A DNA stretch of 64,000 bases from Longimicrobiales bacterium (GCA_965219445.1 CBDCNQ010000005.1:480001-544000), one strand, 5' to 3'; shown: positions 34,735-54,509, numbered from the stretch's first letter. Made by a program: numbers and translations. The notes: generated by a model not told the origin, from the letters alone.

Positions 34735-37527
34735 CTAGACATCCGGTGCACCTTGATCGGGCCTAACCCTTTTTCCCCTCACCTTCTCGATCACAAGCGC
34801 TTTCGCAGATTCGTCGAGTGCGGCCAGTCTCCGCTCGATGTCTTGCTCCAACCTCGTCTGCTTGGCGGTTACGGTGCTCGTCCTATAAGGGATGCTGATG
34901 ATATGCTGCCCCAATGACGCCACATCCGGGTGTTCGAACACTGCCACGAGGGAGACCTCCACACCAAGCTGGCTTCGGATACGCGTCTGGACCCGCGTGG
35001 CCAGAAGCGAATGGCCACCGAGTTCGAAGAAGTTGTCATGGATCCCGATTTCCTCGACCCCGAGAACCTCGCTCCAGATCTCGGCGATCACCTTTTCGAC
35101 CCGCGTCCGAGGCTCCACGTACTCGGCGAGTCCATCTCTTTGGTTCGTCGGCTCCGGTAGGCTGGCCCGGTCGATCTTGCCACTCGGGTTCAGTGGCAAC
35201 TCGTCCAGTGCCACCAAATAGTTCGGCACCATGAACTCAGGAAGTCGATCGCGCAGATACCGACGCACTTCGCCCGTCCCATCCGCCCTTCCCTCCAACA
35301 CCACATACCCAACCAGTTTTCGGTCCCCCTCCTCGTCCTCCTGCACTACCACCACCGCGTCACGCACCCGCTCGTGACCCATCAGCACCGACTCGACCTC
35401 GCCCGGCTCGATCCGAAATCCTCGCACCTTCACCTGATCGTCGAACCGCCCCAGGAATTCCAACTGCCCGTCTGAGCGCCACCGCACACGATCCCCCGTC
35501 ACGTACAAACGCTCCCCCCTCTCGCCAAACGGGTTCGGCACGAACCGCTCCGCTGTCAGGCCTGCTCGACCCCAGTACCCCCGAGCTAAACCCGCACCTC
35601 CGATGTACAACTCGCCCGCCACACCCACCGCCACCAACTGCATCCCCCCGTCCAGCACGTACAACCTCGTATTCGCAATCGGCTTACCAATCGGTGGGAG
35701 GGAGTGACCACCAAAATCCTCAATCCGCATCCGCCACTGGGTTACAACGTGCGTTTCGGTGGGCCCGTAGTGATTCACGATGTGGGAGCAGAAGGCATGG
35801 AGGAGCTGGCGGTGGAGGTCAGCGGAAAGAGTCAGCCGTTCTCCGGCGAACACGATTGTCTCCAAAGCCAACCCGTGACGGCCCTGCTCTCTCACGAGAT
35901 CACATAGATGCCTAAACTTCGATGGGGTCGTGAATATCCACGACCTTAGTTTCTCAGAGCTCTTGCCGAGAACCTCTGCCACCCGGGCCAACTCTGCATC
36001 CTCGCTTGCGTTCAGGCATCCCCCGGCCAGCAGAGGGGTGATAACCTCCTGAACCGATACATCAAAGCTCACCGTAGACGTCTGCCATACGTGAATTGGC
36101 GCCTCGGAGGCAAGCACCGATACCTGCCACTGCAAGAGATTGGCTAATCCGACGTGCCGGTACGAAACGCCTTTCGGGGTACCCGTGGAGCCGGAGGTGT
36201 AGATGATATAGGCCAGGTTCTCGGGATCGACCGGCACCTGCAGATTCATCGTATCCGCGGTATCGAAGATCGGCTCCTCTCGATCGAGGTACACGACTTC
36301 CACGGCCAGTGACGGTACCCGGTCCACCAGACGCCGCTGCGTCAGTAATACCTCGACCTCACTGTCCTCCGCCATGAATGCCAGCCGCTTCGGCGGATAG
36401 TCAGGATCTAGTGGCACATACGCTCCGCCCGCCTTCAATACCCCCAACATCCCCACTACCAACTCCATCCCACGCTCTACACACAGCCCTACCCGTACTT
36501 CCGGACCCACACCCAGCCGCCTCAGTTGATGCGCAACCTGATTCGCCCGCTCGTTCAGCTCTCTGTACGTATACCGCTCCCCCTCACACTCCACTGCAAT
36601 CCCTTCCGGCGTTCGCTCCACCTGCCCTTCGAACAGCTCGTGAACACTCGCCTCCGGATACGATACCCCCGTCTCGTTCCACTCCTCCAACAGCTGCCGA
36701 CGCTCGTCTTCACCCAGCATCGCCATCTCATAAATCGGACACTCCACATCCTCCACCACACTCTCCAACAACCGCCCGTAATGTCCCATCATCCGCTCGA
36801 TCGTCGCGCTATCGAACAGGTCCGTGCTGTATCTACAGCTGCCCACAACCGACCCGTCCTCCTTCTCCACAAGCATCGCAACCAGATCGAACTTGGCAGT
36901 GTGACTGTCTGTCGAAACCGACGTCGCCTCCAGTTCACCCAGCTTGAGCGCTCGCTTCTCCGGACTGCGGAGCGTGAACATCACCTGGAAGACCGGATGA
37001 TGTGCCAGACTCCGTTCGACGTTGAGCTCCTCGACCAGCTTCTCGAACGGCAGATCCTGATGCTCGTACGCGTCTAGCGTCGTCTCACGAACCCGTCGCA
37101 GCACCTCCCGGAAGCTTGGCTCCCCCGATAGATCCGTCCGTAGCGCTAGCGTGTTCAGGAAGAACCCGATCAGTCCTTCGAATTCCTCTCGGCTACGGTT
37201 CGCGATCACAGTCCCGACGACGACATCTTCCTGTCCCGAATACCGAGCCATCAGAACCTTGAACGCCGCCAGCAACACCATGAACAGCGTCGCACCTTCT
37301 TCCCGACCCAAAGCCCGCAAACCCTCCACCACCTCCGCTGGGATATCGAACCGCTCGCGCCCCCCTCGGTGACTCTGAACCGCCGACCGGGCTCGATCCG
37401 TCGGCAACTCCAACAACTCCGGAGCCCCCGATAACTTCCCCTTCCAGTAATCCACTTGTTTGCCTAACTCACGCTGCCGGTTCTGGCCCTCCATGTCGGC
37501 ATCCTCCGCCAAGATCTGCCGATTCAT
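34735..37527 (-). CDS. NRPS-2: half-C-A(Pro-like)-T
   Basis: Starts mid-C domain without HHxxxDG; FDVSVQE and NHYGPTETHVV give code DVQFVAHV; carrier site GGHSL. Confidence 0.95.
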   Translation of the reverse strand: MNRQILAEDADMEGQNRQRELGKQVDYWKGKLSGAPELLELPTDRARSAVQSHRGGRERFDIPAEVVEGLRALGREEGATLFMVLLAAFKVLMARYSGQEDVVVGTVIANRSREEFEGLIGFFLNTLALRTDLSGEPSFREVLRRVRETTLDAYEHQDLPFEKLVEELNVERSLAHHPVFQVMFTLRSPEKRALKLGELEATSVSTDSHTAKFDLVAMLVEKEDGSVVGSCRYSTDLFDSATIERMMGHYGRLLESVVEDVECPIYEMAMLGEDERRQLLEEWNETGVSYPEASVHELFEGQVERTPEGIAVECEGERYTYRELNERANQVAHQLRRLGVGPEVRVGLCVERGMELVVGMLGVLKAGGAYVPLDPDYPPKRLAFMAEDSEVEVLLTQRRLVDRVPSLAVEVVYLDREEPIFDTADTMNLQVPVDPENLAYIIYTSGSTGTPKGVSYRHVGLANLLQWQVSVLASEAPIHVWQTSTVSFDVSVQEVITPLLAGGCLNASEDAELARVAEVLGKSSEKLRSWIFTTPSKFRHLCDLVREQGRHGLALETIVFAGERLTLSADLHRQLLHAFCSHIVNHYGPTETHVVTQWRMRIEDFGGHSLPPIGKPIANTRLYVLDGGMQLVAVGVAGELYIGGAGLARGYWGRAGLTAERFVPNPFGERGERLYVTGDRVRWRSDGQLEFLGRFDDQVKVRGFRIEPGEVESVLMGHERVRDAVVVVQEDEEGDRKLVGYVVLEGRADGTGEVRRYLRDRLPEFMVPNYLVALDELPLNPSGKIDRASLPEPTNQRDGLAEYVEPRTRVEKVIAEIWSEVLGVEEIGIHDNFFELGGHSLLATRVQTRIRSQLGVEVSLVAVFEHPDVASLGQHIISIPYRTSTVTAKQTRLEQDIERRLAALDESAKALVIEKVRGKRVRPDQGAPDV

Positions 37528-40500
37528 TGTGACTGTTCCCGACTCCCCAATCGCTTGAGAAGTTCCTCAGCAAACGTTGGATCAAGAGAATGCATCTGAC
37601 TTGCAATCTCATCAATCATTCCTGCCTGATCACGCGTGGCAGGCGACGGCACCGATGACACATCTCGCAGAGGGCGACTCATTGCGTGCATCTCATAAAT
37701 CGGACGCTCCACATCCTCCTCCACACTCTCCAACAACCGCCCGTAGTGTCCCATCATCCGCTCGATCGTCGCGCTATCGAACAGGTCCGTGCTGTATCTA
37801 CAGCTGCCCACAACCGACCCGTCCTCCTTCTCCACAAGCATCGCAACCAGATCGAACTTGGCAGTGTGACTGTCTGTCGAAACCGACGTCGCCTCCAGTT
37901 CACCCAGCTTGAGCGCTCGCTTCTCCGGACTGCGGAGCGTGAACATCACCTGGAAGACCGGATGATGTGCCAGACTCCGTTCGACGTTGAGCTCCTCGAC
38001 CAGCTTCTCGAACGGCAGATTCTGATGCTCGTACGCGTCTAGCGTCGTCTCACGAACCCGTCGCAGCACCTCCCGGAAGCTTGGCTCCCCCGATAGATCC
38101 GTCCGTAGCGCTAGCGTGTTCAGGAAGAACCCGATCAGTCCTTCGAATTCCTCTCGGCTACGGTTCGCGATCACAGTCCCGACGACGACATCTTCCTGTC
38201 CCGAATACCGAGCCATCAGAACCTTGAACGCCGCCAGCAACACCATGAACAGCGTCGCACCTTCTTCCCGACCCAAAGCCCGCAAACCCTCCACCACCTC
38301 CGCTGGGATATCGAACCGCTCGCGCCCCCCTCGGTGACTCTGAACCGCCGGCCGGGCTCGATCCGTCGGCAACTCCAACAACTCCGGAGCCCCCGATAAC
38401 TTCCCCTTCCAGTACGTCAGCTGCCTCGCTAGCTCCCCACCCTCCAACCACTCTCGCTGCCACATGGCGTAGTCCGCATACTGCACCGGTAGCTCAGGCA
38501 ATGGTGACGTCGCCGAACCACCCCCGTACGCCTCGTACAGCACACTCAACTCCCGGAACAGTACATCCATGCTCCATCCATCACTCACAATGTGATGCAT
38601 CGACAGAAGCAGGACATGCTCCGAATCGGACAACCTCAATAGCTCCGCCCGGAACAGTGGCCCTCGCTCCAGATCGAAGCCCCGCCCCGCCATCTCCTCC
38701 GCCCGCCGCCGAATCTCCTCCTCCAACTCCGCCCCACCCAGACCCGTCAGATCCTCCCGCGGTAACTCCCACCCCCCAGCCTCTCCCACCACCTGCCAAG
38801 GCTCCCCGTCAATCTCCACAAACGTCGTTCGCAACGACTCATGCCGACCGATCACCTCCCCAATCGCCCACTCTAACCCCCCAACATCCAACACCCCAGA
38901 CAGACGAATTCCCTTCGACACGGTGTAAAACGCATCGCCAGGATACATACGATCCAAAAACCACAGCCGCTCCTGTGCGCGCGAAAGCCACAAACGCTCC
39001 TCGCCCGGGGCTCGCCTCACCCCGCCCTCCTCGACGACCAGCCCACACTCGGCATCCTGCGCAAGAGACGCCACCTCAGGGCTCTCGAACATCCTCCGGA
39101 GCGGGACCTCCACACCAAGCTGGCTTCGGATACGCGTCTGGACCCGCGTGGCCAGAAGCGAATGGCCACCGAGTTCGAAGAAGTTGTCATGGATCCCGAT
39201 TTCCTCGACCCCGAGAACCTCGCTCCAGATCTCGGCGATCACCTTTTCGACCCGCGTCCGAGGCTCCACGTACTCGGCGAGTCCATCTCTTTGGTTCGTC
39301 GGCTCCGGTAGGCTGGCCCGGTCGATCTTGCCACTCGGGTTCAGTGGCAACTCGTCCAGTGCCACCAAATAGTTCGGCACCATGAACTCAGGAAGTCGAT
39401 CGCGCAGATACCGACGCACTTCGCCCGTCCCATCCGCCCTTCCCTCCAACACCACATACCCAACCAGTTTTCGGTCCCCCTCCTCGTCCTCCTGCACTAC
39501 CACCACCGCGTCACGCACCCGCTCGTGACCCATCAGCACCGACTCGACCTCGCCCGGCTCGATCCGAAATCCTCGCACCTTCACCTGATCGTCGAACCGC
39601 CCCAGGAATTCCAACTGCCCATCTGAGCGCCACCGCACACGATCCCCCGTCACGTACAAACGCTCCCCCCTCTCGCCAAACGGGTTCGGCACGAACCGCT
39701 CCGCTGTCAGGCCTGCTCGACCCCAGTACCCCCGAGCTAAACCCGCACCTCCGATGTACAACTCGCCCGCCACACCCACCGCCACCAACTGCATCCCCCC
39801 GTCCAGCACGTACAACCTCGTATTCGCAATCGGCTTACCAATCGGTGGCTCTTTAGAGCCACGCTCGCAGCGAGCTGACGTTACATTGACAGATGCCTCG
39901 GTTGGACCGTAGAGATTGAACATTCGACGACCCGTCCCCCATCTCCGAACCAATTCCTCGGGGCAACGTTCTCCGCCAACCAGCAGCGTCGTCAGATCTT
40001 CGAATTCGACCTCCGGTAGGTGGCTGCACACGGTAGGTGGCAACTTGGCGTTCGTGATGCAGTGCTTGCGCAAGAAGTCGACAAGCCCCCGTCCGGGCAG
40101 CAGGGCCTCTCCCACCGCAATATGCAAGGTAGCCCCCGAGTGGATCGCCATCGAAATCTCTGCAATCGCCGCGTCGAAGCCAAACGACGCAAATTGGAGG
40201 ACCGCCGTCCTCGGTCCCGTGTCGAACCTGTCTATCCGATCCAAACTCACATTGGATATGCCCCTGTGCGGGATCAGAACACCTTTCGGGGTACCCGTGG
40301 AGCCGGAGGTGTAGATGATATAGGCCAGGTTCTCGGGATCGACCGGCACCTGCAGATTCATCGTATCCGCGGTATCGAAGATCGGCTCCTCTCGATCGAG
40401 GTACACGACTTCCACGGCCAGTGACGGTACCCGGTCCACCAGACGCCGCTGCGTCAGTAATACCTCGACCTCACTGTCCTCCGCCATGAATGCCAGCCGC

Positions 40501-41624
40501 TTCGGCGGATAGTCAGGATCTAGTGGCACATACGCTCCGCCCGCCTTCAATACCCCCAACATCCCCACTACCAACTCCATCCCACGCTCTACACACAGCC
40601 CTACCCGTACTTCCGGACCCACACCCAGCCGCCTCAGTTGATGCGCAACCTGATTCGCCCGCTCGTTCAGCTCTCTGTACGTATACCGCTCCCCCTCACA
40701 CTCCACTGCAATCCCTTCCGGCGTTCGCTCCACCTGCCCTTCGAACAGCTCGTGAACACTCGCCTCCGGATACGATACCCCCGTCTCGTTCCACTCCTCC
40801 AACAGCTGCCGACGCTCGTCTTCACCCAGCATCGCCATCTCATAAATCGGACACTCCACATCCTCCACCACACTCTCCAACAACCGCCCGTAATGTCCCA
40901 TCATCCGCTCGATCGTCGCGCTATCGAACAGGTCCGTGCTGTATCCACAGCTGCCCACAACCGACCCGTCCTCCTTCTCCACAAGCATCGCAACCAGATC
41001 GAACTTGGCAGTGTGACTGTCTGTCGAAACCGACGTCGCCTCCAGTTCACCCAGCTTGAGCGCTCGCTTCTCCGGACTGCGGAGCGTGAACATCACCTGG
41101 AAGACCGGATGATGTGCCAGACTCCGTTCGACGTTGAGCTCCTCGACCAGCTTCTCGAACGGCAGATCCTGATGCTCGTACGCGTCTAGCGTCGTCTCAC
41201 GAACCCGTCGCAGCACCTCCCGGAAGCTTGGCTCCCCCGATAGATCCGTCCGTAGCGCTAGCGTGTTCAGGAAGAACCCGATCAGTCCTTCGAATTCCTC
41301 TCGGCTACGGTTCGCGATCACAGTCCCGACGACGACATCTTCCTGTCCCGAATACCGAGCCATCAGAACCTTGAACGCCGCCAGCAACACCATGAACAGC
41401 GTCGCACCTTCTTCCCGACCCAAAGCCCGCAAACCCTCCACCACCTCCGCTGGGATATCGAACCGCTCGCGCCCCCCTCGGTGACTCTGAACCGCCGACC
41501 GGGCTCGATCCGTCGGCAACTCCAACAACTCCGGAGCCCCCGATAACTTCCCCTTCCAGTACGTCAGCTGCCTCATCACTCGTTGCATGTCAGAAGGTCG
41601 CGATTTCGGCCTGGCGGAGCGCAT
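37524..41624 (-). CDS. NRPS-1: half-C-A(unknown)-T-C
   Basis: Starts mid-C domain; code DAAKLGLV; GGHSL; complete C-terminal C domain with HHIVSDG. Confidence 0.95.
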   Translation of the reverse strand: MRSARPKSRPSDMQRVMRQLTYWKGKLSGAPELLELPTDRARSAVQSHRGGRERFDIPAEVVEGLRALGREEGATLFMVLLAAFKVLMARYSGQEDVVVGTVIANRSREEFEGLIGFFLNTLALRTDLSGEPSFREVLRRVRETTLDAYEHQDLPFEKLVEELNVERSLAHHPVFQVMFTLRSPEKRALKLGELEATSVSTDSHTAKFDLVAMLVEKEDGSVVGSCGYSTDLFDSATIERMMGHYGRLLESVVEDVECPIYEMAMLGEDERRQLLEEWNETGVSYPEASVHELFEGQVERTPEGIAVECEGERYTYRELNERANQVAHQLRRLGVGPEVRVGLCVERGMELVVGMLGVLKAGGAYVPLDPDYPPKRLAFMAEDSEVEVLLTQRRLVDRVPSLAVEVVYLDREEPIFDTADTMNLQVPVDPENLAYIIYTSGSTGTPKGVLIPHRGISNVSLDRIDRFDTGPRTAVLQFASFGFDAAIAEISMAIHSGATLHIAVGEALLPGRGLVDFLRKHCITNAKLPPTVCSHLPEVEFEDLTTLLVGGERCPEELVRRWGTGRRMFNLYGPTEASVNVTSARCERGSKEPPIGKPIANTRLYVLDGGMQLVAVGVAGELYIGGAGLARGYWGRAGLTAERFVPNPFGERGERLYVTGDRVRWRSDGQLEFLGRFDDQVKVRGFRIEPGEVESVLMGHERVRDAVVVVQEDEEGDRKLVGYVVLEGRADGTGEVRRYLRDRLPEFMVPNYLVALDELPLNPSGKIDRASLPEPTNQRDGLAEYVEPRTRVEKVIAEIWSEVLGVEEIGIHDNFFELGGHSLLATRVQTRIRSQLGVEVPLRRMFESPEVASLAQDAECGLVVEEGGVRRAPGEERLWLSRAQERLWFLDRMYPGDAFYTVSKGIRLSGVLDVGGLEWAIGEVIGRHESLRTTFVEIDGEPWQVVGEAGGWELPREDLTGLGGAELEEEIRRRAEEMAGRGFDLERGPLFRAELLRLSDSEHVLLLSMHHIVSDGWSMDVLFRELSVLYEAYGGGSATSPLPELPVQYADYAMWQREWLEGGELARQLTYWKGKLSGAPELLELPTDRARPAVQSHRGGRERFDIPAEVVEGLRALGREEGATLFMVLLAAFKVLMARYSGQEDVVVGTVIANRSREEFEGLIGFFLNTLALRTDLSGEPSFREVLRRVRETTLDAYEHQNLPFEKLVEELNVERSLAHHPVFQVMFTLRSPEKRALKLGELEATSVSTDSHTAKFDLVAMLVEKEDGSVVGSCRYSTDLFDSATIERMMGHYGRLLESVEEDVERPIYEMHAMSRPLRDVSSVPSPATRDQAGMIDEIASQMHSLDPTFAEELLKRLGSREQSQ

Positions 41625-42076
41625 CGAACTGCCAAGGGTTCCGTGTGGCGTCGGGTCGACTCACTAGAAAGGGGCCCCACAAACTCTCGCTCTCGCCCCC
41701 GAGTTGAACCCTCTCGCGAGACCAATTCAGCCTTCCCAGTGGTGGTATTTGCAAGCCGCAAGCTCCTGACCTTGGATCGCAGAAAACGCGGATGAATCGA
41801 CCGGGTATCATGTAGAAAGGCAGCAGGCCCTCCAATCCGCTCCGGCAAATTGACGATACTTGCTCCCGCGGGCGGTCCGAGACATGCCGGCCGGAGTGCG
41901 CTGAGCCTGCCTGTCCAATAGCTCGTGTAGAAGAAGGTTTCTCCGCATCCGTCACATCACGTCAAATGCACCGCGGAGCCGCCATCGCCGCCTCGCGATC
42001 GTAGGTCATGTCTCCCGACCGGAAGCCCTCCCGAAGCATGGACGGCACAAACTTTTCACGTCCTAGGAGGCTTGGA

Positions 42077-42292
42077 TCACGCACCCTCCGGAGTTGATTC
42101 CTCCATCTTCCGTCGCAGCGAAAGTGGGCGCATATCGGTCCACACTTCGCTGATATAAGCCAGGCACTCCTCCTTGCTCCCCCGCTTCCCTGCATCCCGC
42201 CACCCAGGAGCGTTTTCACGCTCCGCGAACCAGATGGAGTACTGCTCCTCTTGGTTGATCACAACTCGATAGACCCTGCCCTCTTCACTCAT
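42077..42292 (-). CDS. mbtH: MbtH-like protein
   Basis: [12 protein letters not shown]...PGW...[18 protein letters not shown]. Confidence 0.97.
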
Positions 42293-42533
42293 ACGATCTC
42301 CTCGACGATCAGGTTCCAAAGACCCTGGCTAGCCCGTTCAATGATCTGGGCCGCACCGACGGCCCATCAACCGACGCGTCCTGCCTCCTTGAAACCACGA
42401 AGATTTAGACTCCAGACTGCCGGCTCGAAACTTGGCGACACACACGGCCGCGTCTCTATGAACAGACGCTGCCAAGGTACTGATCTGCCCCCCAAAGCGG
42501 TACCCCCGTCCAATGCCAGACCAGCAGCCGCCC

Positions 42534-42880
42534 TTACAGTTGAGGCAACCTGAGAAACCAAGATGATGGCTTGATCGTCTCCAGAGCGAGTGGGAGACGA
42601 TCGCAGCCAGGGTGTGGCCGGGTGGTATTTCGCAGCCGCAGCCCCTGCTCAACCAGCACCTCAGCCTCGGCCAGTGAATAGCAGATCTCCCCGTTCAAGA
42701 ACTTGTTTCTCAACCTTCGCTTGAAGCTCTCGACGTAGCCACTTAGCCGAGGACTCCCCGGCTCGATGTATAACGTCTGGACACCTGGCCCGGCAAAAAA
42801 CACCACCGGACCAGTTTGGCGGTGAACTCAGGCCCATTGTCGGAGCGCAGATTGTCGGGCGGACCATGCCGCGCGAACCA
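42534..42880 (-). mobile_element. IS3-family orfB remnant
   Basis: NLRSDNGPEF, TLYIEPGSP, GYVESF and NTTRPH across shifted frames. Confidence 0.8.
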
Positions 42881-44257
42881 ATTGGCTGTCAACGCCGATT
42901 GAAAATGTCACACTTCGACGGCGGGTGACGAGCCTCTCGATCGTCGTTTTTTCCTTTGCTCTTGCCCTCGTTTTGCGGGGGGGGGGGCTCCGCAGGAGGC
43001 GAGTGGAGCCCTTTGGAGAGCTCGGTGCGATAATGCATCCGGTAGCTGTTACCGCGGAGGTTGACGATGTGGCAGTGGTGCGGAGCCGGTCGAGGAGTGC
43101 TGCGGCCATGACCTCGTCGCCCAGAACCTCGCCTCACTCCTCGAAGCCCTTGTTGGACATGAGCACGGTGGATGTGTACTCGTAGCGCCGGTTGATCAAG
43201 TGGAAGAAGAGCATGGCGCCGGTCTGACTGACCGGTAGGTAGCCAATTTCGTCCACGACCAGGAGCGCGGGATAAGTCAGGGCCTTGAGGCGGTGACCGA
43301 GCCGGCCCGCGGCCTTGGCTTCTTCGAGAGAGGTGATGAGGTCGGCCGGAGCGCCGTTGTAGACACTGCTTCCGCTCCGGGCTGTAGCAGTGGCCAGGCT
43401 GATCGCCTGATGCGTCTTGCCGACGCCCGGAGGGCCGAGGAAGATCACGTTCTCCTTGCGTGCCAGGAACCCGAGCGCGGCATGGACGGGCGTTGGGCCT
43501 GCATGCGCGGATCCGGAAGCCATGATGGCTCGCGAAGCGTAGGAACTCGGCGTTCTCGATACGGCGACCTCCCATGGCTCGCTCATCCTTGATGACTACG
43601 ACGTTCATCTGGTCGAACAGTAGCTCGTGGGGCACACCGCCAAAGAACGAGAACGCCTCTTCAAGACCCTCGAAGACATGCATCGTCTTCCTGAAGAAAA
43701 ACTGTAGCCACACAGGACGCGGGAGAAGCCCAGCACGGCCAGGAACGCATAACGCTTGCCCTAGTGCAGCCGAAAGTCCGCGAAGTCGACCTGACCCTGG
43801 TGGCCCAGCGGCGTCTCAAAGCGGACTACCGGATCCTCAGGCGCCGGGGGCGGACCTTGCGCACTTACTCCTTAAGTTATGTGTATCCACCCCGATGCCT
43901 GCCGCTCGGGTCTCTTCGAGAGCCAGATCGCTGTGAGTCGCGGGTAGGTCTCCAAGGGTACTTCGATGATGCCTGTGTCGGGATCCAGCTTGGTGGACTT
44001 CGGCGATCGAGGCCCCTAGGGGACCGGTTCGTCGTCCGGTCCCGATCCGATCCCCCGGCCTCGATCTCAGCGATAGATCGTGCGTCGATCGAGCTAGGAT
44101 CAAAGGCATCATAGGGGCATGGCGACCGCTACCGGTACCGATCAGCAGCGAAGCAGCCCGAAGACGAAGAGGCGTTCTCCTCCGGGAGCGGGTGCGCGTT
44201 CATCATTATTCGCGCAAGCAAGCAACCCAACCCGTCCTACCCAAGAGGAGGATGCCC

Positions 44258-45313
44258 ATGGAGAGGTATATCGGACTCGACGCACACGCGTCGAGCTGCA
44301 CGCTGGGGATTGTAGGCCCCAGCGGCAAGCGCTTGGGCTCGCAGGTGGTGGAGACGAACGCGCGGGCGCTGATCGAGGTGCTGCGAGGGATTCCGAGGAA
44401 CCGGCACTTATGCCTGGAAGAAGGGACGCTGTCGGGGTGGCTGTACGAGGTGCTGAAGCCGCACGTGGAGGAGCTGACGGTGGCGGGGGTCGGCAAGAGC
44501 CGGGGCCCGAAGACCGACAAGCTGGACGCGTTTGCCCTGGCGGAGAAGCTGCGGATCGGATCACTGGAGACGACGGTCTACAAGAACCGGGGCCAGTTCA
44601 GGCGGCTGGGGGAACGGGCGAAGAGCTACGACTTCTTGGTCGGCGACACGGTGCGGGTGAAGAACCGGCTCAAGAGCGTGCTGCGCTCGAGAGGAGTGGC
44701 CTACGGCGCGGGGCGCTCGGTCTACTTAAAGCGCGACCGGGAGGAGTGGTTGGCCAAGCTGCCGGAAGCGAGCAGGACGACGGCCGGGTTGCTGTACGAG
44801 GAGCACGACGCACTCGTGGCATTGAGGGCGAAGGCCGAGAAGGCGTTGCTGGCGGAAGCACGCAAGCATCGAGAGTGGCATGTGCTGAAGACGTGCCCGG
44901 GTCTGGGTCCGATCCGGACGGCGGAGCTCCTGCCGGTGGTGGTGACGCCGTACCGGTTCCAGAGCCGGAGCAGGTTCTGGGCGTACTGCGGACTGGGCGT
45001 CGTGATGCGGAGCTCGTCGGACTGGGTGCGGGGTCCGGGTGGGCGGTGGGTAAGGGAACCGGTACAGCAGACGCGGGGGCTGAATCGGAACTTCAACCAC
45101 ACGCTGAAGCGTGTGTTCAAGGGCGCAGCGACGACGGTGATCGGTCGGGCCGAGGACGAGCCCTTGTACCGCCACTACGAGCGACTCCTGGAGGGGGGCA
45201 CGAAGCCGAATCTGGCGAAGCTGACGATCGCGCGTCAGCTCGCCTCGATCGTGCTAGCGGTGTGGCGCACGGGCGAAGCGTACGACCCCAAGAGACTGGA
45301 AGCGACGGAGTAA
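44258..45313 (+). CDS. IS110-family DEDD recombinase/transposase
   Basis: YIGLDAH, LEEG, KTDKLDA, CPGLG and AYCGL...RSSS; RBS GAGGAGG upstream. Confidence 0.95.
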   Translation: MERYIGLDAHASSCTLGIVGPSGKRLGSQVVETNARALIEVLRGIPRNRHLCLEEGTLSGWLYEVLKPHVEELTVAGVGKSRGPKTDKLDAFALAEKLRIGSLETTVYKNRGQFRRLGERAKSYDFLVGDTVRVKNRLKSVLRSRGVAYGAGRSVYLKRDREEWLAKLPEASRTTAGLLYEEHDALVALRAKAEKALLAEARKHREWHVLKTCPGLGPIRTAELLPVVVTPYRFQSRSRFWAYCGLGVVMRSSSDWVRGPGGRWVREPVQQTRGLNRNFNHTLKRVFKGAATTVIGRAEDEPLYRHYERLLEGGTKPNLAKLTIARQLASIVLAVWRTGEAYDPKRLEATE

Positions 45314-45384
45314 ACCGGCCTGGGATCGGCGAGCGTGGGGTCGAAAGCGGTCACAACATGGGGTCCGACGAAACGGAAGCGAAC

Positions 45385-45520
45385 CGGTTACAGGGGACAG
45401 CATCCATACACACCGTGGGCCGGGGCAGAGAGCCCAAGCCCCCACTCAAAGGCTATGCACCCCTGGAGAGCCGAACGAAGCGATGGGCCACAGAGTCCCA
45501 GATAGAAGGATGGTTCCCGC
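45385..45520 (+). ncRNA. Putative bridge/seekRNA of the IS110 element
   Basis: Nested stems enclose TACACACC and TCAAAGG (match the target); a second loop carries ATAGAAGG (matches the element's right end). Transcript ends unknown. Confidence 0.8.
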
Positions 45521-45679
45521 TCCAGAGCGGAGAACGCGACGGCTGTGAACGTCTTCCGGACTGCGATGCGGACCCTGCGAGCGCACCCCTCCCCACCCTG
45601 AGTCGTCGACCGGGCAATCCAAACCATGCGGACGCCGACGGTCAAAAAATGAGCCGACGGCGCGTGGGGAAGGTGCGTC

Positions 45680-45685
45680 TTGACC
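45680..45685 (+). promoter_or_regulatory. Outward -35 box of a circle-junction promoter
   Basis: TTGACC lies exactly 17 bp from CATCAT (44107-44112) once the ends are joined through AAGG. Confidence 0.65.
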
Positions 45686-47328
45686 GCCAGCCCCATAGAA
45701 GGGTGTGTAAAAAGAGAGGCGACGTACCTTTGCGCTGAGATTTAAACCAGCGAGCCCGGGTGACAGCCCGGGGAAAGGAACGTCGCCTCATGAGAGAGGA
45801 TATCGCGGGACCCCAGGGTGCGTCCAGCAGGCTGATGTGGGAGACGCTCGAGGGGATGGTTAGGGAGAAGGCGCAGGAGTTCATCCAACAGATCATGGAG
45901 GAGGAAGTCACGGAGTTGTTAGGCCGGGAGAGGTCAGAGCGCAGGAGTACGGTGGACTCGGCCGAGGGCTACCGCAACGGATATGGCAAGCCGAGGCGGT
46001 TGGCGATGAGCTCGGGCACGATCACACTCCGACGCCCTCGGGTTCGGGGCGTCGAGGAGCGGTTCGAGAGTCGGGTGCTGCCGTTGTTCGCGAGGCGGAC
46101 GAAGGAGCTGGGCGCTCTGCTTCCGGAGCTGTATCTGCACGGACTGGCAGAGGGAGACTTCGAGCTGGCGATGCGGGGACTGCTAGGCGAGGGGGCACCG
46201 CTGTCGAAGTCTTCGATTCGGAGACTGCGGGCGGGATGGACGGCGGAGTTCGAGGAATGGAGCCAGCGTCGCCTGGAGGGCCGTGAGGTCGTCTACGTAT
46301 GGGCGGACGGGATCTACGTGAAGGCAGGGCTCGAGCGGGACAAGGCGGCGCTGCTGGTGGTGCTGGGCGCGATGCGAGACGGGACGAAGGAGGTGTTGGC
46401 CCTGAGATCGGGCTACCGAGAGTCGGTCGAGTCCTGCTCCGAGGTGTTGCGGGATCTGAAGGCACGCGGCATCGAGGCGCCCCGGCTTCTGATGGCGGAC
46501 GGTAACGCGGCGATCTGGGGCGCAGTACGGGCAGGTATGGCCTGAGGCGGGCGAGCAACGGTGCTGGAACCACAAGATGAGGAACGTGCTGGACCGGCTG
46601 CCGCAGCGGGAGCAGAGCGAGGCGAAGGATCTTCTCAGGGCCGTGGTCTACGCACCGAGCCGGGCCGAGGCTGTGAAGGCCCGCGAAGTGTTCGCCAGGC
46701 GCTACAGGCCGTGGTATCCGAAGGCGGTGGACGTACTCGAGGACGACTGGGAGCGGATGGTGGCGTTCTACGACTTCCCCGAGGATCACTGGAAGCATCT
46801 ACGCACGACGAACGTGGTCGAGAGCCCGTTCGCTGCGCTACGGCTCAGGACGACGGCGGCGAAGCGATTCAAGCGGGTCGAGAGCGCTACGGCGCTGATC
46901 TGGAAGTTGCTCTTGGTGGCCGAGAAGCGGTTCCGAAGGCTCGACGCTCCTCACCTCCTCAAGGACGTGTTTGAAGGAAGGAAGTTCGAAGACGGAAAGC
47001 CCGTCTCAACCCAACAGCGGAAGAATGCCGCCTGATACGTTTACACACCTATTGACCCAACCTCCGTCGATCAACGCCCAGGTCACTCGCCAGGGCTGCC
47101 TTCGACATGCCTTGTTCGAGATAGTGTCTGAGCAACACATGCTCCTCTGTTCCGTACATCGCGCCTCCGACGTGTGGGTAGAGTCGCAAAGATGGAGGAT
47201 CGACGCGTGGGCGCTCAGTTAGTAGAGCTTACGCTCGGCGCCTCGCAGCCCGACCTACAGGACCGCGGAGTGTGACATTTTCGTCCGCCACTTCTGTGTA
47301 AGCGCTTAGTCCGCCGCTAACGATTAGC

Positions 47329-47470
47329 GAGTGCAAACTCCTCGAGCAGAAAAGCTCGCGGAACCAGCTCGAGGCGCGGATGGCCGTGTTGGACTTCATC
47401 GAGGCCTAGTATGATCCCCACCGATGACACTCCGCTCTCGGGCATGGGTCACCCCTTGATTACGACAAGG
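47329..47470 (+). mobile_element. Short IS3-family orfB C-terminal remnant
   Basis: EARMAVLDFIEA*YDPHR*HSALG, with stop codons. Confidence 0.6.
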
Positions 47471-47514
47471 AAGCACACACCGCACCTATCGATAACCCCA
47501 GCATCGAGGTAGCC

Positions 47515-48855
47515 TTGAAGCACTTACGGGTCCGCCCGCTCAAAGGACCAATCGGTGGAAGCATCGAAGTGCCCAGATCCAAACCGGAAACCCAGCGCGC
47601 CATCCTGGCCGCCTCTCTTGCGGAGGGCTCGTCGATCATCCATGGCGATCTAAGGTGTGAGGAGACTCTGGCCATGCGGACGGCGGTGTCGGCGCTTGGG
47701 GCTCATGTGAAGGTAGATCACGGTGCCCTGTGGGTAACAGGAACATCACGGCCGGCCGCGCCGGCATCAGTGATACATTGCGGTGGTTCTGCGCTGGTGT
47801 TTCGTACAATGCTTGCGCTTGCATCATATAGTGGGGCGCCGACCATTCTGAGTGGAGACCACACGCTCCGATTGCGGCCGATGGCACCACTTTTCAGTTC
47901 GCTAGGTGAACTAGGGGCGGTGGTGGAGGAAATCTCGGAAGCCGGATGCGCCCCGGCAGTCAATTGGGGCAGGGGGCTGCGCGGCGGACACGCGTATCTG
48001 CCACCCGACGTAAGCTCACAGTTCCTCACGGCGCTTTTGTTTGCCGCGCCGCTTGCCGAGCGTAGGCTCATTCTCTCCGTAGGACAGCCTTTGCGTTCAC
48101 GATCGTACGTTGATCAAACGATCGTTGCTCTAGCACGTGCTGGTATCACGGTCGAAGTGTCCTCCTCCAATAGTATCTACTGTGTCGAGCCGGGACCGTA
48201 CAGGCCTTTTGAGGTAGGAATCGGCGGCGATTTCACATCCGCGTCATACCTGATGCTGCTTGCATCCCTTTTCCCTGGCAGTTCTTTGACCTTGAGGGGG
48301 CTCGAGGAGGATAGCCTCCAGGGGGAGCGACTCATGCTGGACGCTTTGGAGGCAGTCGGCGCAAAAGTGGGTTTCAACCGAAAGGACGAATGCCAGATTG
48401 AGGTCTCCAATGAACTCCAAGGAGACCTGGAACTAGACCTGTCTAATGGGCCGAATGTGTTCCCGACACTCGCGGTATTGGGTGCCTTCATACCTGGCAC
48501 AACGGTGCTTGTCGGAGCGCGACTAACGAACGATCACAAGTGTCCGAGGATCACCGCGGTGGCGGAGGAGCTGAGGCGCTTCGGGGTCAAATTGTCGCTG
48601 ATCTACGATGGAAACAGCTTGGACGGGTTGCGGATTCAGGGTCGTCGAGACTACAAGGGAGACGCCATACTTGATAGCCACGGTGACCACAGATTGCTAA
48701 TGGCCTTGGCGGTTGCGTGTACTCGAATGTCGAGAGCTACGTCGGTGACGGGATCCACTCTGGTCGCTCAGTCCTACCCGAACTTCTATAGGCATCTCAC
48801 AAGACTGGGAGTGCAACTCGCCGATGAACCGTTGCTGACTCCACCGGCAAGCTAG
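47515..48855 (+). CDS. EPSP-synthase-like enolpyruvyl-transferase-fold protein with an altered active site
   Basis: PRSKPETQRA, LRLRPM, SSQFLTALL, SHGDHRLLMA and SYPNF present; KETDR replaced by HKCPR. Confidence 0.88.
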   Translation: MKHLRVRPLKGPIGGSIEVPRSKPETQRAILAASLAEGSSIIHGDLRCEETLAMRTAVSALGAHVKVDHGALWVTGTSRPAAPASVIHCGGSALVFRTMLALASYSGAPTILSGDHTLRLRPMAPLFSSLGELGAVVEEISEAGCAPAVNWGRGLRGGHAYLPPDVSSQFLTALLFAAPLAERRLILSVGQPLRSRSYVDQTIVALARAGITVEVSSSNSIYCVEPGPYRPFEVGIGGDFTSASYLMLLASLFPGSSLTLRGLEEDSLQGERLMLDALEAVGAKVGFNRKDECQIEVSNELQGDLELDLSNGPNVFPTLAVLGAFIPGTTVLVGARLTNDHKCPRITAVAEELRRFGVKLSLIYDGNSLDGLRIQGRRDYKGDAILDSHGDHRLLMALAVACTRMSRATSVTGSTLVAQSYPNFYRHLTRLGVQLADEPLLTPPAS

Positions 48856-49043
48856 ATTTGTCCCATCGTGACCCGACTTAGATTGAATCCGATCTCCTTC
48901 GTGCTCGGAAATTGACTCTTCTTCCAGCATCGCCCGAAACTAGGCCTTACCCTCTGTGAGTGGCGGATTATTTCGACTTTAGGATCTGTACAGATCCGGA
49001 TAGCAACGGCTAACCAGAGACCGTCTCGCTTGACCATTGGTGA

Positions 49044-49661
49044 ACTGCCAATCATCTGCGAAGGACTTGATCGACCCCGGCTGTATACTCAACCGACACG
49101 GATCCCCCGAGAATGTCAGCTTATCGAAGGGGATCCGCAATACCGAGGCCGCGAGCCTTTGAGTAGGCCTCCTTGAGAGTCCAAAGTACCGTGAATCGGT
49201 CCAGCCGGTGGCGCGGCCGGTAGCTTTACGAAATCGTCAAACTCGATGCTACGCAGCACTGTGCCAGCTAAAGCGTGTATGTCGGAGACCTGGCCTTTGG
49301 CTTGCACGTCGATCCCGCAATCGATTTCGGTGGTAACGACGCAGGCTACATGCCTGGCCGTGTGAGAGATATTGAATCTCATCCTAGGGGTCAGAACCGG
49401 ATGGGCGATCTCTGGACGCCCCGTGTGAAGTTCGTCGAAGCTCCATGACGAAACGGCACTCAGGGACAACATGTTGTCAGAGCGGCGCCGCGCGAGCGTG
49501 GGGCTGGGGCTCTAGGGCAGGCATGATCCGTCATCTTCGCAGGGAATCTCCCCGGGAACAGCGTACGAGGGATGTGTCCGGGAGCGAAGGCCAAGGGAAG
49601 TTGATGTTCGTCCCGCGACTCTGCGTCCGAAACCCGACCCGACCCGAGTGAGCCATGGCAT
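49044..49661 (-). pseudogene. Frameshifted Sfp-type PPTase remnant (copy 2)
   Basis: Same sequence as 4083-4700. Ends approximate. Confidence 0.75.
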
Positions 49662-49674
49662 GGGGACCCGAACT

Positions 49675-50619
49675 CTAGCAGGCCTTGAAATTGTATCCCC
49701 GTGTCGTCGCAGTCACCGAACGATTGTGGTGATAGTCGTCGCGACCACTCACCAGTACGACGCCGTACTTTTCGAGATTGACCCTGTCACCGAACTCCTC
49801 TAGGAACATCGTGTCCGGATAGACTGCTACGCATGGCGGGACGTACCGCGCTGCGAATCCGAGACGCATCATTCGTGTCTTCCCTGCATGAGGATGCGAC
49901 GCATGCATCAGTGTGGACCAGAACATCACCGCTTCCCCCGGGCGCATCACGATTGATACAGCCAGCGATTCATCAGGCATCCACTCAGGATCCAACTGCA
50001 ACTCACGGTAGTCATATCCAAAAAACCCCCTCCGGACTCCGCGCTTATCGATCATGTTTATGTCCTGCGGCGAGTAATGCATGCCCTTCGACTCGTCGTA
50101 GAACATCCGCTCATGCGTGCCGGGCACGAATTGGAGGCAACCCGTCTCCTCATTCGAGTCCGTGAACGCCGTCCATACAGTGATGGTCCCTCCGAATTTC
50201 TTGAGGTGTTCCGGCCAGACGATCTGAGGCTTGCCCGAAGCATTCGCAAACGTGTCTGCCTGGTGCCAGTCCGTACCTTCGTCGCCGGGATACTTGGCAA
50301 AGAACTCAGTGCGCCAGCAAACGATGTCCGGACCTAATGCGCCCTGCACCCGGCTGATAATCCCCGGGTGACAAACATGGTCCGCAAGTAGCTCACAGTC
50401 GAGATGGCGATCGTAGTTCATGATGGTACTCTTCGGCGAAGAGTGGTTCTGCCCCGAGTAAACCGCGAAAGTCCGATCGAGTAGCTCAATGCGCTGTCGC
50501 TGCCAGCGGGTCCGCATCTCCTCCGGCTCATAGAGCTTGAATGGCCCGAGATACCCCTGCTCCTGGAATCGCGCGTGATCCTCCGCAGTCAGTGCACCCA
50601 ACATGTCAGTGTCGCTCAT
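49675..50619 (-). CDS. syrB2: SyrB2/CmaB-type non-heme Fe(II)/2-oxoglutarate aliphatic halogenase
   Basis: [39 protein letters not shown] (HxA halogenase motif), [22 protein letters not shown] and TTRG closely follow Pseudomonas SyrB2 as I recall it. Confidence 0.93.
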
Positions 50620-50730
50620 TGTTCACCCTTCCTTCCACCCTGGCGGGAACAGGACTCGTGTCGCCGTGCACCCCTTAGAATAACGACTGGAGCGTGTGGC
50701 GTCATCCTGATCCCTTGAGCACTGGGCAGC

Positions 50731-51579
50731 CTAGTGGTACATGAACTGACCGCCGTTGACGTGAAGGGCCTGACCAGTGATGAAGGATCCGCCATCACCA
50801 GCGAGAAACACGCAGGCCATGGCGACGTCCTCGACGCGTCCGATTTTTTTCATCGGTATCTGCCGGAGACGTATCTGCAACCAGTCCCTTGGATACTGGC
50901 TCCAATCTCGCTCCGTGTCGATCGATCCCGGAGAGACTGTGTTGGCCGTTATGCCACAGGCTGCGAACTCGATCGAAATAGCCTTTGTGAGAGCGTGTAA
51001 CCCTGCCTTGGAGACGATGTTGTGCGCACGGGCCTCGATGTGCCCCGCAAAGCCGTCCTCACCGGCAATATGGATGATCCGTCCCCGCCTGGATTCTATC
51101 ATTCCGGGGAGGACAGCCCTAGCGAGGTAGAACGCCGCGTTGAGGTTGGTGTTAAGCGTGTCGTTCCAGTCCTTCAACGAAATCTCGAGAAACGGCTGAC
51201 GCCGCCGTTTCCCGACGTTCGAGACTGCAATGTCCACCCTTCCGAAACGGCGCTCCGCCGCATCAACCATCTTTAGGACTTGATCCGGGTCACCGACGTC
51301 GGCGAGATGTTTCACCGCCACGCCACCGTCTTCTCCGATCTTCCGCACGACTTGATCCAGCGCGGCCACGTCGCGGCGCCCGTTAACAACGATGTTCGCG
51401 CCAGCACGAGCCAGACCCAATGCTATCGCCCGACCAATGTTCCGACCAGCGCCAGTCACGATGGCAGTCCGTCCTGCCAGCTGCGGCCCTCCACCGTTGT
51501 CTCCAGGCGAATCTGTCAACCCGCTCCCTGTGGCAGTCACGCGCTTATAGCCTTCTCTGATATGACCCTCGAGGAACAT
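50731..51579 (-). CDS. SDR oxidoreductase
   Basis: TGAGRNIG, RFGRVD, VSPG and ITGQALHVNGG; the YxxxK motif appears as NIVSK. Confidence 0.88.
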   Translation of the reverse strand: MFLEGHIREGYKRVTATGSGLTDSPGDNGGGPQLAGRTAIVTGAGRNIGRAIALGLARAGANIVVNGRRDVAALDQVVRKIGEDGGVAVKHLADVGDPDQVLKMVDAAERRFGRVDIAVSNVGKRRRQPFLEISLKDWNDTLNTNLNAAFYLARAVLPGMIESRRGRIIHIAGEDGFAGHIEARAHNIVSKAGLHALTKAISIEFAACGITANTVSPGSIDTERDWSQYPRDWLQIRLRQIPMKKIGRVEDVAMACVFLAGDGGSFITGQALHVNGGQFMYH

Positions 51580-51609
51580 CGTGGTCGCGCGGAAAGATCC
51601 ATGGACGTC

Positions 51610-52953
51610 TCAGCAGCCGACCAACCGCGCATATTCCTTGATCGAGCCGACATCGAAGTTCTGCAGCGCGTCGAACAGCGACGCCGTGTTCCCTTGGCCC
51701 AGAACGGGCTCGACGAGTTGCTCGAACTTCGCCTTGACTTGCCTCCAGTTCATGGGGTTCTGAGGATCACCCGGCGCCACGGATTTGCCGGACTTCAGTG
51801 ACGTGTCATCGGCCAGGCGGACCTCGATCCAGGCGGAACTTCTATCACATGTGTCGTCTGTCAGCAGCTCTGTTCGCTGCACCAGAGCGCGGAGAGTCGG
51901 GTCCAGCACCTTTTCGTCTGAGAAGTCGGCCACGGTTCCTCGATGGCCGGTAAGGCCAAGTGCAGCGCAGTACGCGGCGGAAAATTTTCCTTCGAGGCCG
52001 GTCTCCGGCGCCATCTTACCCGCGATGCACCGTGTCACGGGGCTGATCCAGATCCGGATCCCAGATATTTCTCTCCCCTTCACTTGATTGGATAAGTCGA
52101 GCGCGGATTCAATCACTGGGTGGGTCAGTCTGCAACATGCGTACAGTTTAGGGGCGTTCTGCATCAGCTCCCAGTCTCCGTGGGGATTGAACACCTGAAC
52201 TGGTACGGACCTATCCTGCACCAGCGCGGTTACCAAAGGTCCTGCCGGCTCCAATACGTCGGCGGCGGCTACGAAGCCTTGCGCAGCAAGCTCAGCTGCG
52301 ATTACACCATTCATCGCTGCCTTGCCGGCATGTAGTGGCTTCGCCATGGTGCCGAAAGAGGCAACCAGACCGCCCGTCTGTGTTGCGGCCGCTCCTAGGG
52401 CGTTCCGAATGCCGTCTTCATCTAGGTTGAGTACGATGCCCGCGGCAGCCGCCGACGCAAGACATCCCAGCACTCCGGTCGAATGCAGACCTCGAATGTT
52501 CAGGGCGGGACCGAGGCCATTGCGGCCGAGCCTCGCACCGATCTCGAACCCTCCGATGAACGCAGAGAGGATGTCTCGTTCTTCGGCTCCCGTATGTAGC
52601 CCTAGAGCGAGCGCCACGCTCCACACGGGGTTGCTGAGATGCGCGGCAGAGCTGGCGTGCGTGTCGTCGTAGTCGAGAGAGTGGCCCATTGTTGCGTTCA
52701 CGAGCGCGGCCGCGACGGGAGCTACGCGTCCACCGCATAGGATTTGCGCCTCTCCGCTGGTACTCCAGCCGAGGGCGACCTGGCGGGCGAACTGCGCTGC
52801 TGGCTCCGCGTGCCCTCCGATCGCGACCCCGATGCTATCAGCGAGGCTCCGGCGCGCGACGTCAACAACCTCGGGAGGGAAGCTCATTTCCTTTACCGAA
52901 GCGACAAACCGACTCGCGACTTCGGTGCTCGTGGAACTTGAATTTGATTTCAC
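51610..52953 (-). CDS. MmgE/PrpD-family protein
   Basis: HSLDYDDTH, HLS, GTMAKPLHAG, KLYACCRLTH, GKFS and GDPQNPM. Start chosen at GTG 52953. Confidence 0.92.
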   Translation of the reverse strand: MKSNSSSTSTEVASRFVASVKEMSFPPEVVDVARRSLADSIGVAIGGHAEPAAQFARQVALGWSTSGEAQILCGGRVAPVAAALVNATMGHSLDYDDTHASSAAHLSNPVWSVALALGLHTGAEERDILSAFIGGFEIGARLGRNGLGPALNIRGLHSTGVLGCLASAAAAGIVLNLDEDGIRNALGAAATQTGGLVASFGTMAKPLHAGKAAMNGVIAAELAAQGFVAAADVLEPAGPLVTALVQDRSVPVQVFNPHGDWELMQNAPKLYACCRLTHPVIESALDLSNQVKGREISGIRIWISPVTRCIAGKMAPETGLEGKFSAAYCAALGLTGHRGTVADFSDEKVLDPTLRALVQRTELLTDDTCDRSSAWIEVRLADDTSLKSGKSVAPGDPQNPMNWRQVKAKFEQLVEPVLGQGNTASLFDALQNFDVGSIKEYARLVGC

Positions 52954-53375
52954 TGGTTTTCGGGGGCAGGACGTTTGTGAAGAGGCGAACGCCAGTTGCT
53001 GGCATCTGATAGGACACACGCCGACTGGTCCGCGCACCGATGGGAAACGCTGATCGTTCTGAGAATCGTCAACATTACATAGCTCAAGCGGCGTGCAAGT
53101 CCAGCCGGCGTTCGAGATCGCGAGTTGCCGCCGCAACTTCGCCTCCCATCATATCGAGAACCAATATCTTAGCAATATAGGGAGATGACCAATGTCGCTG
53201 ATAAGCTCAAGACCTTAGTCGAAAGCCACCACGAACAACGCAAAGACTGTGGGCAAATGGCGAATCGATAGCGCGCGCACCGAGTCCCTTGTGCCCCGAT
53301 GTAATCAAGCCTAAGATCCGGCTTACTACAAGGTAGTACTGAAGGTCGAAGGCCGCTGGGAAGGGAGATCGAAGC

Positions 53376-54509
53376 ATGATCCGTATCGTGGATAGCACGC
53401 TTCGGGAGGGCTGTCAGTCGGCCGCGGGTCGCTTCACCATCGAGCAAAGCCAGGAGATCGCGCGGCTCTTGCGAGCCGCCGGGGTCGACATGATCGAGTG
53501 TGGTCACGCGAGCATCGATGCGGAAGAGCTGCGGAGAATTGCCGCAGTGACAGAAGTCGTCGGGAACGTGCCAGTCCTCTCACACGCGCGTGCCTGTCCC
53601 TTGGATGTTGATCGTGCAGCAGAGAGCGGGGCCTCTTGGGTGGGGATTTTTCTCGGCTGCAACAGCCTCACCCGGAAGGCTCGGCTGCCAGGAAGAAGCC
53701 GAAGAGAACTCCTGAGGATGGCGCGGGAGAGCGTGTCTCGGGCACGCCGCCGTGGTCTTCAAATACGCTTTACTGTGGAAGACGCGAGTCGGACACCTCT
53801 TGACCTGATGCTAGATCAGTTTCGGGTAGCACTTGAGTCCGGGGCGGATCGCCTTTGCATTGCGGATACAATCGGCCTGTTGGAGCCGCCATTGACTAGC
53901 AAAGTTGTTTGCGAGTTCCGCGAGAGGTTCCCGGAGGTCCCCTTGGAAGTGCACATGCACGACGACCGTGGGTTAGCATTGGCGAACGTTCTTGCGGCGG
54001 TAGACGCCGGAGCCACATGGGTTTCCACCTCTGTGAACGGTCTGGGCGAACGTGCGGGCATCACTGATCTCGCAGCCCTTGAGCTTAACCTTCACGTCCG
54101 GGGGGACCGACTGCTCACCTGTGGGGAGTCCCTTCAAGAGCTGAGCCGGCGTGTCGGTGCTTACTCGCGGTCCAGGCCGGATTTCCGCCGGCCGGTAGTT
54201 GGTCGGGATGCGTTCACACACGCCAGTCGCCTTCATCGGCTTGCAATGCAACGGGACACTTCAGCATACGAGCTGGTGGACCCCGCGATCGTGGGCAGGT
54301 CTCGCATAATTGAGCTGCCGGAGTCTCGTTCGGAGGAGGCAGTGACGGCGCGGCCTTCAACCAACGGCACGTCTCGGTCGGTGAGTTCGCCACCGCGGGA
54401 ACAGCACTCGAGATTCGGATCGAAGAAGCCTTCTCGCGTAGTCGGAGACGGTGAAGACCGGGCGCGGTCGCCCGGCGATGTGAAGCAAAGGCCGATGCCG
54501 TCCTTTTAA
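53376..54509 (+). CDS. Homocitrate/isopropylmalate-synthase-like DRE-TIM enzyme
   Basis: DSTLREG, EDASR, ADTIG, HMHDDRGLALAN and NGLGERAG; no recognisable LeuA regulatory domain. Confidence 0.9.
   Translation: MIRIVDSTLREGCQSAAGRFTIEQSQEIARLLRAAGVDMIECGHASIDAEELRRIAAVTEVVGNVPVLSHARACPLDVDRAAESGASWVGIFLGCNSLTRKARLPGRSRRELLRMARESVSRARRRGLQIRFTVEDASRTPLDLMLDQFRVALESGADRLCIADTIGLLEPPLTSKVVCEFRERFPEVPLEVHMHDDRGLALANVLAAVDAGATWVSTSVNGLGERAGITDLAALELNLHVRGDRLLTCGESLQELSRRVGAYSRSRPDFRRPVVGRDAFTHASRLHRLAMQRDTSAYELVDPAIVGRSRIIELPESRSEEAVTARPSTNGTSRSVSSPPREQHSRFGSKKPSRVVGDGEDRARSPGDVKQRPMPSF

Follow-up and report, generated by a model that had tools for sequence, protein, structure and literature searches.

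An IS110-family element predicted to be guided by RNA to the left terminal repeat of IS256 in a Longimicrobiales bacterium

Introduction

The insertion sequences IS4321 and IS5075 were reportedly connected with the ends of Tn21-family elements by Partridge and Hall in 2003. For IS621, PMC11208158 describes a CT core whose T is invariant, together with handshake bases that pair with positions 6–7 of the opposite partner. Post-excision junctions have been found for IS621 (PMC13626964), whereas no rejoined donor site was found in the available portions of PMC11187229 and bioRxiv 10.1101/2025.10.25.684509. In the IS256 family, the terminal repeats carry the family motif TGTAAA, and the transposase of ISCth4 contacts the repeat at bp 1–12 and 14–25 (PMC7780238). 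The present analysis concerns an IS110-family element inserted in an IS256 element in a window of 64,000 nt (the whole stretch of DNA analysed) from Longimicrobiales bacterium GCA_965219445.1, CBDCNQ010000005.1:480001-544000. The genome, hereafter G000, measures 4.56 Mb in 5 contigs. This element is very probably guided by RNA to a 14-nt site in the left repeat of IS256, where it fills nearly every copy in G000. An earlier note, made from the window sequence alone, had proposed a bridge RNA or seekRNA set to the IS256 left repeat; its central idea is upheld here, and its core, one of its stems and its donor guide for the left end are replaced.

Occupancy of IS256 left ends

The element has 24 left junctions in G000, 23 of which follow the IS256 left tip at one same base, so that the other copies do sit in IS256 repeats, as the earlier note had wished to see checked; the insertion point lies between bp 15 and 16 of the repeat. 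By motif count, the element occupies 21 of the 26 IS256 left ends and none of the 29 right ends; a further filled left end, split by a group II intron, escaped the count for that reason. The filled IS256 copies belong to three types, up to 20% apart. Removal of the element from the window copy restores the left end that is usual in related genomes (39/40 in G004 and 7/8 in G001), as had been claimed, and the identity of the interrupted neighbour is confirmed by the 8-bp duplication that flanks it, by a Mutator-type transposase and by terminal repeats with TGTAAA. In the commoner IS256 type, the transposase frame is unbroken (423 codons).

The perfect 14-nt target has no empty occurrence in G000. 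Each of the five empty left ends has its own change, always inside the target, and four of the five show 0 differences over 1,357–1,365 bp from a filled copy and are altered in the target only. For the commoner type, three empties altered solely in the target compare with 0.05 that the background rate would yield (P about 2e-5); therefore, something beyond survival acts at the target. Ends altered within the target are likely to be refractory, and it is these that remain empty. The copy outside IS256, at C2:336726, has a left flank that matches the second target guide at 8/8 positions, better than IS256 does, and a second off-IS256 insertion, in the related genome G005, matches the guides at 11/14.

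Two peculiarities of the IS256 copies may be recorded. Many of those in G000 (C2–C5) have duplications that do not match and whose partners flank other copies, as with C2:418493 and C2:466203, which suggests flank exchange via repeat recombination, or assembly swaps. At C4:1169765-1171666, a 1.9-kb group II intron-like element with a reverse transcriptase ORF, present in 13 copies, lies within the right half of a filled target; in G002 and G005, the IS256 inner repeat is preceded by another, different intron-like end.

Covariation of guides with insertion sites

Relatives of the element were collected as 79 genome and 80 metagenome loci (the best 80 of 468 and of 566), which with the window gives 160. 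The RNA was parsed in 98 of them, forming 73 clusters at 90%, and the 62 unparsed loci comprise short contigs or other scaffolds. For the guide tests, one locus was taken per cluster, the element ends were located without use of the guides, and 10,000 shuffles were performed; some parses that had slid (four loci among them) were kept. The second target guide agreed with the left flank at 4.33/5 positions versus 2.29 when shuffled (n=45), and the first with the right flank at 5.70/7 versus 3.34 (n=47), the latter scored as the best of several registers, with shuffles under the same rule. The donor guide for the right end agreed with that end at 6.91/7 versus 5.98 (n=47). None of the 10,000 shuffles equalled any of these three scores (p about 1e-4 each). 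A small effect was observed for the putative left-end donor guide (45475-45481; 5.05/7 versus 4.91, n=41, p 1e-4), and the first base of the GA following the right-end donor guide equals the first target base in 29/40 loci versus 25.5 expected (p 0.012). The core agreed in 45/45 loci, reading AG in 29 and AA in 16.

The shuffles take no account of kinship, but the guides vary widely, with 61 and 50 distinct ones in the 73 clusters. Comparison with the flanks suggests that the guide sets the insertion site, and both target guides track their flanks, as the earlier note had expected of loops that recognize targets. Targeting of IS256 was rejected as a clade-wide trait: among the 98 RNA-parsed loci, only the 95–100% group has these guides. 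In most close relatives, the target consists of GGATAG and, about 6 nt further on, CAA; this site was examined as a possible attC, REP or IS end, and no common hairpin was seen by eye in 26 rejoined sites. Related IS110 relics are found in G000 at C2:661602 and C5:1023334, with a left end after GGGATAG, the common target of the clade, and a lone 3' part of a related RNA.

The predicted guide RNA

An alignment of 64 of the 73 cluster representatives, nine being left out, was folded with RNAalifold into a scaffold with two internal loops. Its 26 pairs are formed in 94.8% of cells, a figure favoured by the derivation of the pairs from the same alignment, and in at most 53.7% when the alignment is slid; 13 pairs show two-sided changes. 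These compensatory pairs are the covariance across homologs that had been put forward as a check. The single-sequence fold is modestly stable (z -1.2 and -1.65), and Rfam contains no family for the scaffold, giving one chance match (E 0.85).

In the window RNA, the first target guide consists of ACACACC and 2 nt opposite the core, which read CT in 49/64 relatives and GT here. The second guide, ACTCAAAG, is followed by GC, which is complementary to donor positions 6–7. Both guide words together occur in 7 of 199,325 random 389-nt genome windows, as a chance estimate. The motifs listed in the earlier note lie where it placed them (CAGGGG at 45391, CCCCTG at 45460, GCAT at 45400, ATGC at 45455, GTGGG at 45415, CCCAC at 45441, TACACACC at 45407, TCAAAGG at 45446, ATAGAAGG at 45502 and 45695, GATG at 45482 and CATC at 44107); some of the roles it gave them changed. 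The GTGGG/CCCAC stem is paired in 57% of cells, and 158 of 500 shuffles score as high; the conserved stem in its place is GGGC/GCCC. TCAAAGG had been taken wholly as left target half plus core, and its last G belongs to the conserved scaffold. GATG, proposed as the donor guide for the left end, does not covary with that end (p 0.09).

The tandem duplication of the last 460–510 bp of the element at C5:1612735-1613245 in G000, and also in one copy in G003, gives 2–3 copies of the RNA region.

The element, its core and its recombinase

Coordinates of the features are collected in Table 1. G000 contains 22 full-length copies at 98.2–100% identity, plus partial ones, and the element ends are fixed by relatives that have other flanks. 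Insertion around the 2-nt core is site- and orientation-specific, with neither terminal repeats nor duplication beyond the core. Covariation in relatives identifies the core as AG (CT on the opposite strand). The alternative core GG, given in the earlier note, was rejected because G stays with the left end of the element when the right flank begins with A, C or T.

At the right end, the longest perfect run of the subterminal repeat is 5 bp (10/11 with a gap), and runs of 3–8 bp occur across 30 loci. As read from the sequence, joining of the element ends creates TTGACC-17-CATCAT, a predicted promoter, and 95 left ends carry CATCAT, CATTAT, CATAAG or TATAAG-like sequences at the predicted -10 position. 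Noncoding stretches of 152 bp and 388 bp lie upstream and downstream of the recombinase gene, respectively.

The recombinase exceeds the cut-offs of PF01548 (39.7 bits) and PF02371 (32.4 bits), and D8, E54/55, D87, D90 and S253 are unchanged across 27 aligned homologs. The full-length match to the NCBIfam IS110 model NF033542 (E 2.8e-32) gives 112.2 bits against a cut-off of 140; the protein therefore represents a divergent branch of the IS110 family. The sole match of solved structure is IS621, and it is weak (E 1.6e-5). Full-length plasmid matches reach at most 27% identity among the matches listed, and neither IS4321 nor IS5075 is named among them. Of 8,000 proteins scored, 3,146 fall into the clade at E 1e-20 or better. 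The element is classed as IS110 family, 3'-RNA type, and is not filed under the IS1111 group because long subterminal repeats are lacking.

Table 1. Features of the IS110-family element, its predicted RNA and the IS256 target in the window
Feature	Coordinates	Strand	Description
IS110-family element	44106-45701	+	1,596 bp, right copy of the AG core included; splits the IS256 left inverted repeat
Predicted -10 box of circle-junction promoter	44107-44112	+	CATCAT; 17 nt from TTGACC once ends are joined
DEDD recombinase	44258-45313	+	351 aa; D8, E54/E55, D87, D90 and S253 invariant
Predicted bridge RNA scaffold	45391-45515	+	Consensus fold and pair counts, 64 relatives
Target loop	45404-45416 / 45442-45454	+	Consensus fold
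First target guide	45407-45416	+	Complementary to right flank (TACACACC), then 2 nt opposite core
Second target guide	45444-45453	+	ACTCAAAG, left-flank sense plus core, then handshake-like GC
Donor loop	45474-45484 / 45499-45510	+	Consensus fold
Likely donor guide for left end	45475-45481	+	5/7 match to left end of element
Donor guide for right end and core	45502-45510	+	ATAGAAG, then handshake-like GA
Element right end	45680-45701	+	Predicted -35 box TTGACC, short imperfect subterminal repeat, core AG
IS256 8-bp target duplication, left copy	44083-44090	+	Identical to 47065-47072
Outer 15 bp of IS256 left inverted repeat	44091-44105	+	Ends with target half TCAA (44100-44103) and core AG (44104-44105)
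Inner IS256 left repeat	45702-45714	+	Target half GGTGTGTA, includes family motif TGTAAA; follows 21 element right ends
IS256 transposase, two frames in window copy	45790-47035	+	45790-46545 and 46577-47035; PF00872, NF033543
IS256 right inverted repeat	47040-47064	-	Never filled in G000
Second IS256 in window, empty	2335-3712	-	Body identical (0 differences over 1,357 bp); one change, within target, which reads TCAGAGGG

Over the left end and gene (44106-45313), the IS110 copies in G000 are mosaics of two haplotypes; in the RNA region and right end they vary at a single homopolymer only. Six distant relatives have an additional AAG at the right junction, possibly produced by slippage during the reaction. 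In the window, the composite of the two elements adjoins IS21 remnants (42889-43713) and lies inside an NRPS-like gene region with near-identical repeated modules (34735-54509).

Sister genomes

The comparison genomes are Longimicrobiales metagenome-assembled genomes, and 5 of 85 left-end rows were dropped as having no readable target. The single copy in G001 encodes a protein 95% identical and has changed guides; its left junction is the tip of the IS256 right repeat, its right flank is unrelated, and seven perfect IS256 left ends in this genome are empty. G005 has 5 filled and 10 empty left ends, and all ten empties are changed at the core. One altered allele, TCAAATGG, is present in eight copies (four were checked, with duplications intact), and the other, TCAATAAG, equals the right repeat of G005. 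In G003, two left ends are filled and two altered.

Altered targets make up 20 of 57 left ends in the four genomes with at least three RNA-bearing copies and 1 of 48 in the two genomes with one or two such copies, counts in which the copies are not independent. Near-identical copies of the 3' region were found in only one of 60 sampled relatives.

Proposed mechanism

At the level of sequence, the element, its ends, the AG core, the occupancy, the guide–target matches and the covariation are established. The recombinase is predicted to use RNA from the 3' end of the element to locate the 14-nt IS256 site. By analogy with IS621, ISEc11 and their kin, the element would form a circle in which the joined ends build the promoter; pairing would link the target loop to the two strands of the site and the donor loop to the circle junction, and strands would be exchanged at the core by the DEDD and serine sites. 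An element inserted after bp 15 would come between the two segments of the IS256 repeat that the transposase binds, and filled IS256 copies are likely to be immobilized, judging from the structure of another IS256-family member, ISCth4. Since the right-flank guide reaches into the conserved TGTAAA, IS256 would provide a renewable place to land at no cost to host genes.

Several observations weigh against this scheme. Opposite the core, the first guide carries G here but C in 49/64 relatives, and the register of the right-flank guide shifts by 1–2 nt among relatives. G002 has four filled, three altered and five perfect empty ends (three with a truncated tip), and G004 has one filled and 39 perfect empty ends (40 of 53 candidates scored); therefore, filling is not automatic. 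Filled composites might still move, their immobilization being argued by analogy. The one metatranscriptome covers just 44341-44626 and IS256, at a depth of 2–4, and leaves the RNA region uncovered. No circle or excision joint was found in eight runs, in which contigs drop rare forms; raw reads in this search numbered just nine, all from the Hi-C run, and the search gives no evidence either way.

Alternative explanations

The most serious alternative concerns the altered empty ends, which could be scars of imprecise exit of the IS110 element or of AAG-repeat slippage, precise losses being refilled and imprecise ones staying empty. This explanation falls somewhat short of an even chance. It would account for the excess of target-only changes in the commoner type, for which survival alone is insufficient, and each of TCAGAAG, TCGAAG and TCAAG can be composed from the left flank followed by the right end of the element. 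On the other hand, GTGAGTA, a standing allele, is present also in G001, whose element does not match; the eight copies of TCAAATGG with intact duplications and the identity of TCAATAAG with the G005 right repeat suggest that alleles proliferated or that repeats were converted. All the changes are moreover of 1 nt and could reflect a point change or assembly error, and the precedents diverge, since excision of IS621 restores the site (PMC13626964), whereas ISEc11 and CazIS110 leave no rejoined site in the available accounts. Scars, standing alleles and selected variants may all be represented in the data as a mixture.

An improbable alternative is that a single insertion was followed by spread of the 3-kb composite by the IS256 transposase, the occupancy then reflecting amplification of a passenger, not repeated targeting. 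Composites do retain 7–9-bp duplications, most IS256 bodies of the commoner type are identical, and one derived base is common to all five filled G005 ends. However, IS110 copies inside identical IS256 bodies differ at up to 26 sites, and copies with one difference between them sit in IS256 types 148 differences apart, a mismatch argument that gene conversion could blur; three IS256 types and two non-IS256 sites have also been used. The notion that protein–DNA recognition or contact with the IS256 transposase chooses the site, the RNA matches being incidental, is scarcely credible: the RNA case does rest on sequence, and the metatranscriptome has no cover there, but the guides of the 73 clusters, 61 and 50 of them distinct, vary with the flanks of their own loci, and the 95% identical recombinase of G001 comes with other guides and another site.

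Within the preferred reading of repeated RNA-guided insertion, the sister genomes allow a wider and tentative interpretation, which is somewhat less likely than not, namely that guide and target of two insertion sequences are in a contest, of which the sister species show different states (silencing, immunity, spread and retargeting). The IS110 element would fill and silence left ends, and IS256 would become immune through changes in the 14-nt target, some probably written by imprecise exit of the element and one copied from the immune right repeat. An immune variant would then multiply, as the eight copies in G005 might illustrate, and the guide would respond by a longer match or by a shift to the right repeat (G005 and G001).

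Comparison with known systems

The literature search found no IS110 element that targets IS256 ends, ISfinder, TnPedia and paper supplements lying outside it, and IS256 is not mentioned in the available text of PMC11208160. The novelty claimed in the earlier note holds in so far as no IS256-end case was found; it was overrated, since end-targeting (IS4321/IS5075) and IS-targeting (ISEc21) are published. The locus nevertheless offers a natural data set for bridge recombinases, with 24 insertions, a further pair of off-site ones counted separately, about ten refractory alleles and one retargeted relative, which indicates which target bases matter. The clade is also a fresh source of programmable recombinases, combining a compact 351-aa enzyme, a two-loop scaffold of roughly 125 nt and many natural guides. 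If filled ends are dead, one mobile element polices the copy number of another; if the contest is real, these genomes preserve natural examples of targets immune to a bridge recombinase and of its retargeting. The altered empty ends give a route to ask whether such elements exit the donor site naturally, on which papers differ.

Like IS4321 and IS5075, of the IS1111 group, the element is an IS110-family insertion at a fixed base of the terminal inverted repeat of another element; their target is the Tn21-family repeat, whereas here it is the IS256 left repeat, and long subterminal repeats are absent. A longer noncoding region downstream of the gene is shared with the IS1111 group. According to PMC11187229, the seekRNA elements ISEc11, ISKpn4 and ISPa11 likewise have a 3' noncoding region and natural retargeting among relatives, and a junction promoter such as the one predicted here, and in them, as in the IS1111 group, a top-strand complement (here at 45407) precedes a bottom-strand match (here at 45444). 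They differ in their end repeats, usually 11–13 bp (near perfect, with 7/3-bp extensions in the IS1111 group) versus 5 bp here, and in the serine motif, GL-P----SG versus GLGV..RSSS; a clear second (donor) loop distinguishes the present RNA. ISEc21, of the IS110 group, is also an RNA-guided insertion sequence aimed at another IS family, although it uses a 5' noncoding region and targets the transposase coding region of IS3-family elements (PMC11187229).

From IS621 (PMC11208160, PMC11208158 and PMC13626964; PDB 8wt6), the element differs in that its RNA lies downstream of the gene, its target orientation relative to the gene is opposite, the targets of IS621 are REP sequences, and the protein match is weak, as noted above. 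The two systems have in common two internal loops and a DEDD-plus-serine recombinase. When the opposite strand is read, the correspondence extends to a CT core in which T is invariant and C variable, to handshake dinucleotides at the same places, and to a 7-nt left guide with a short right guide.

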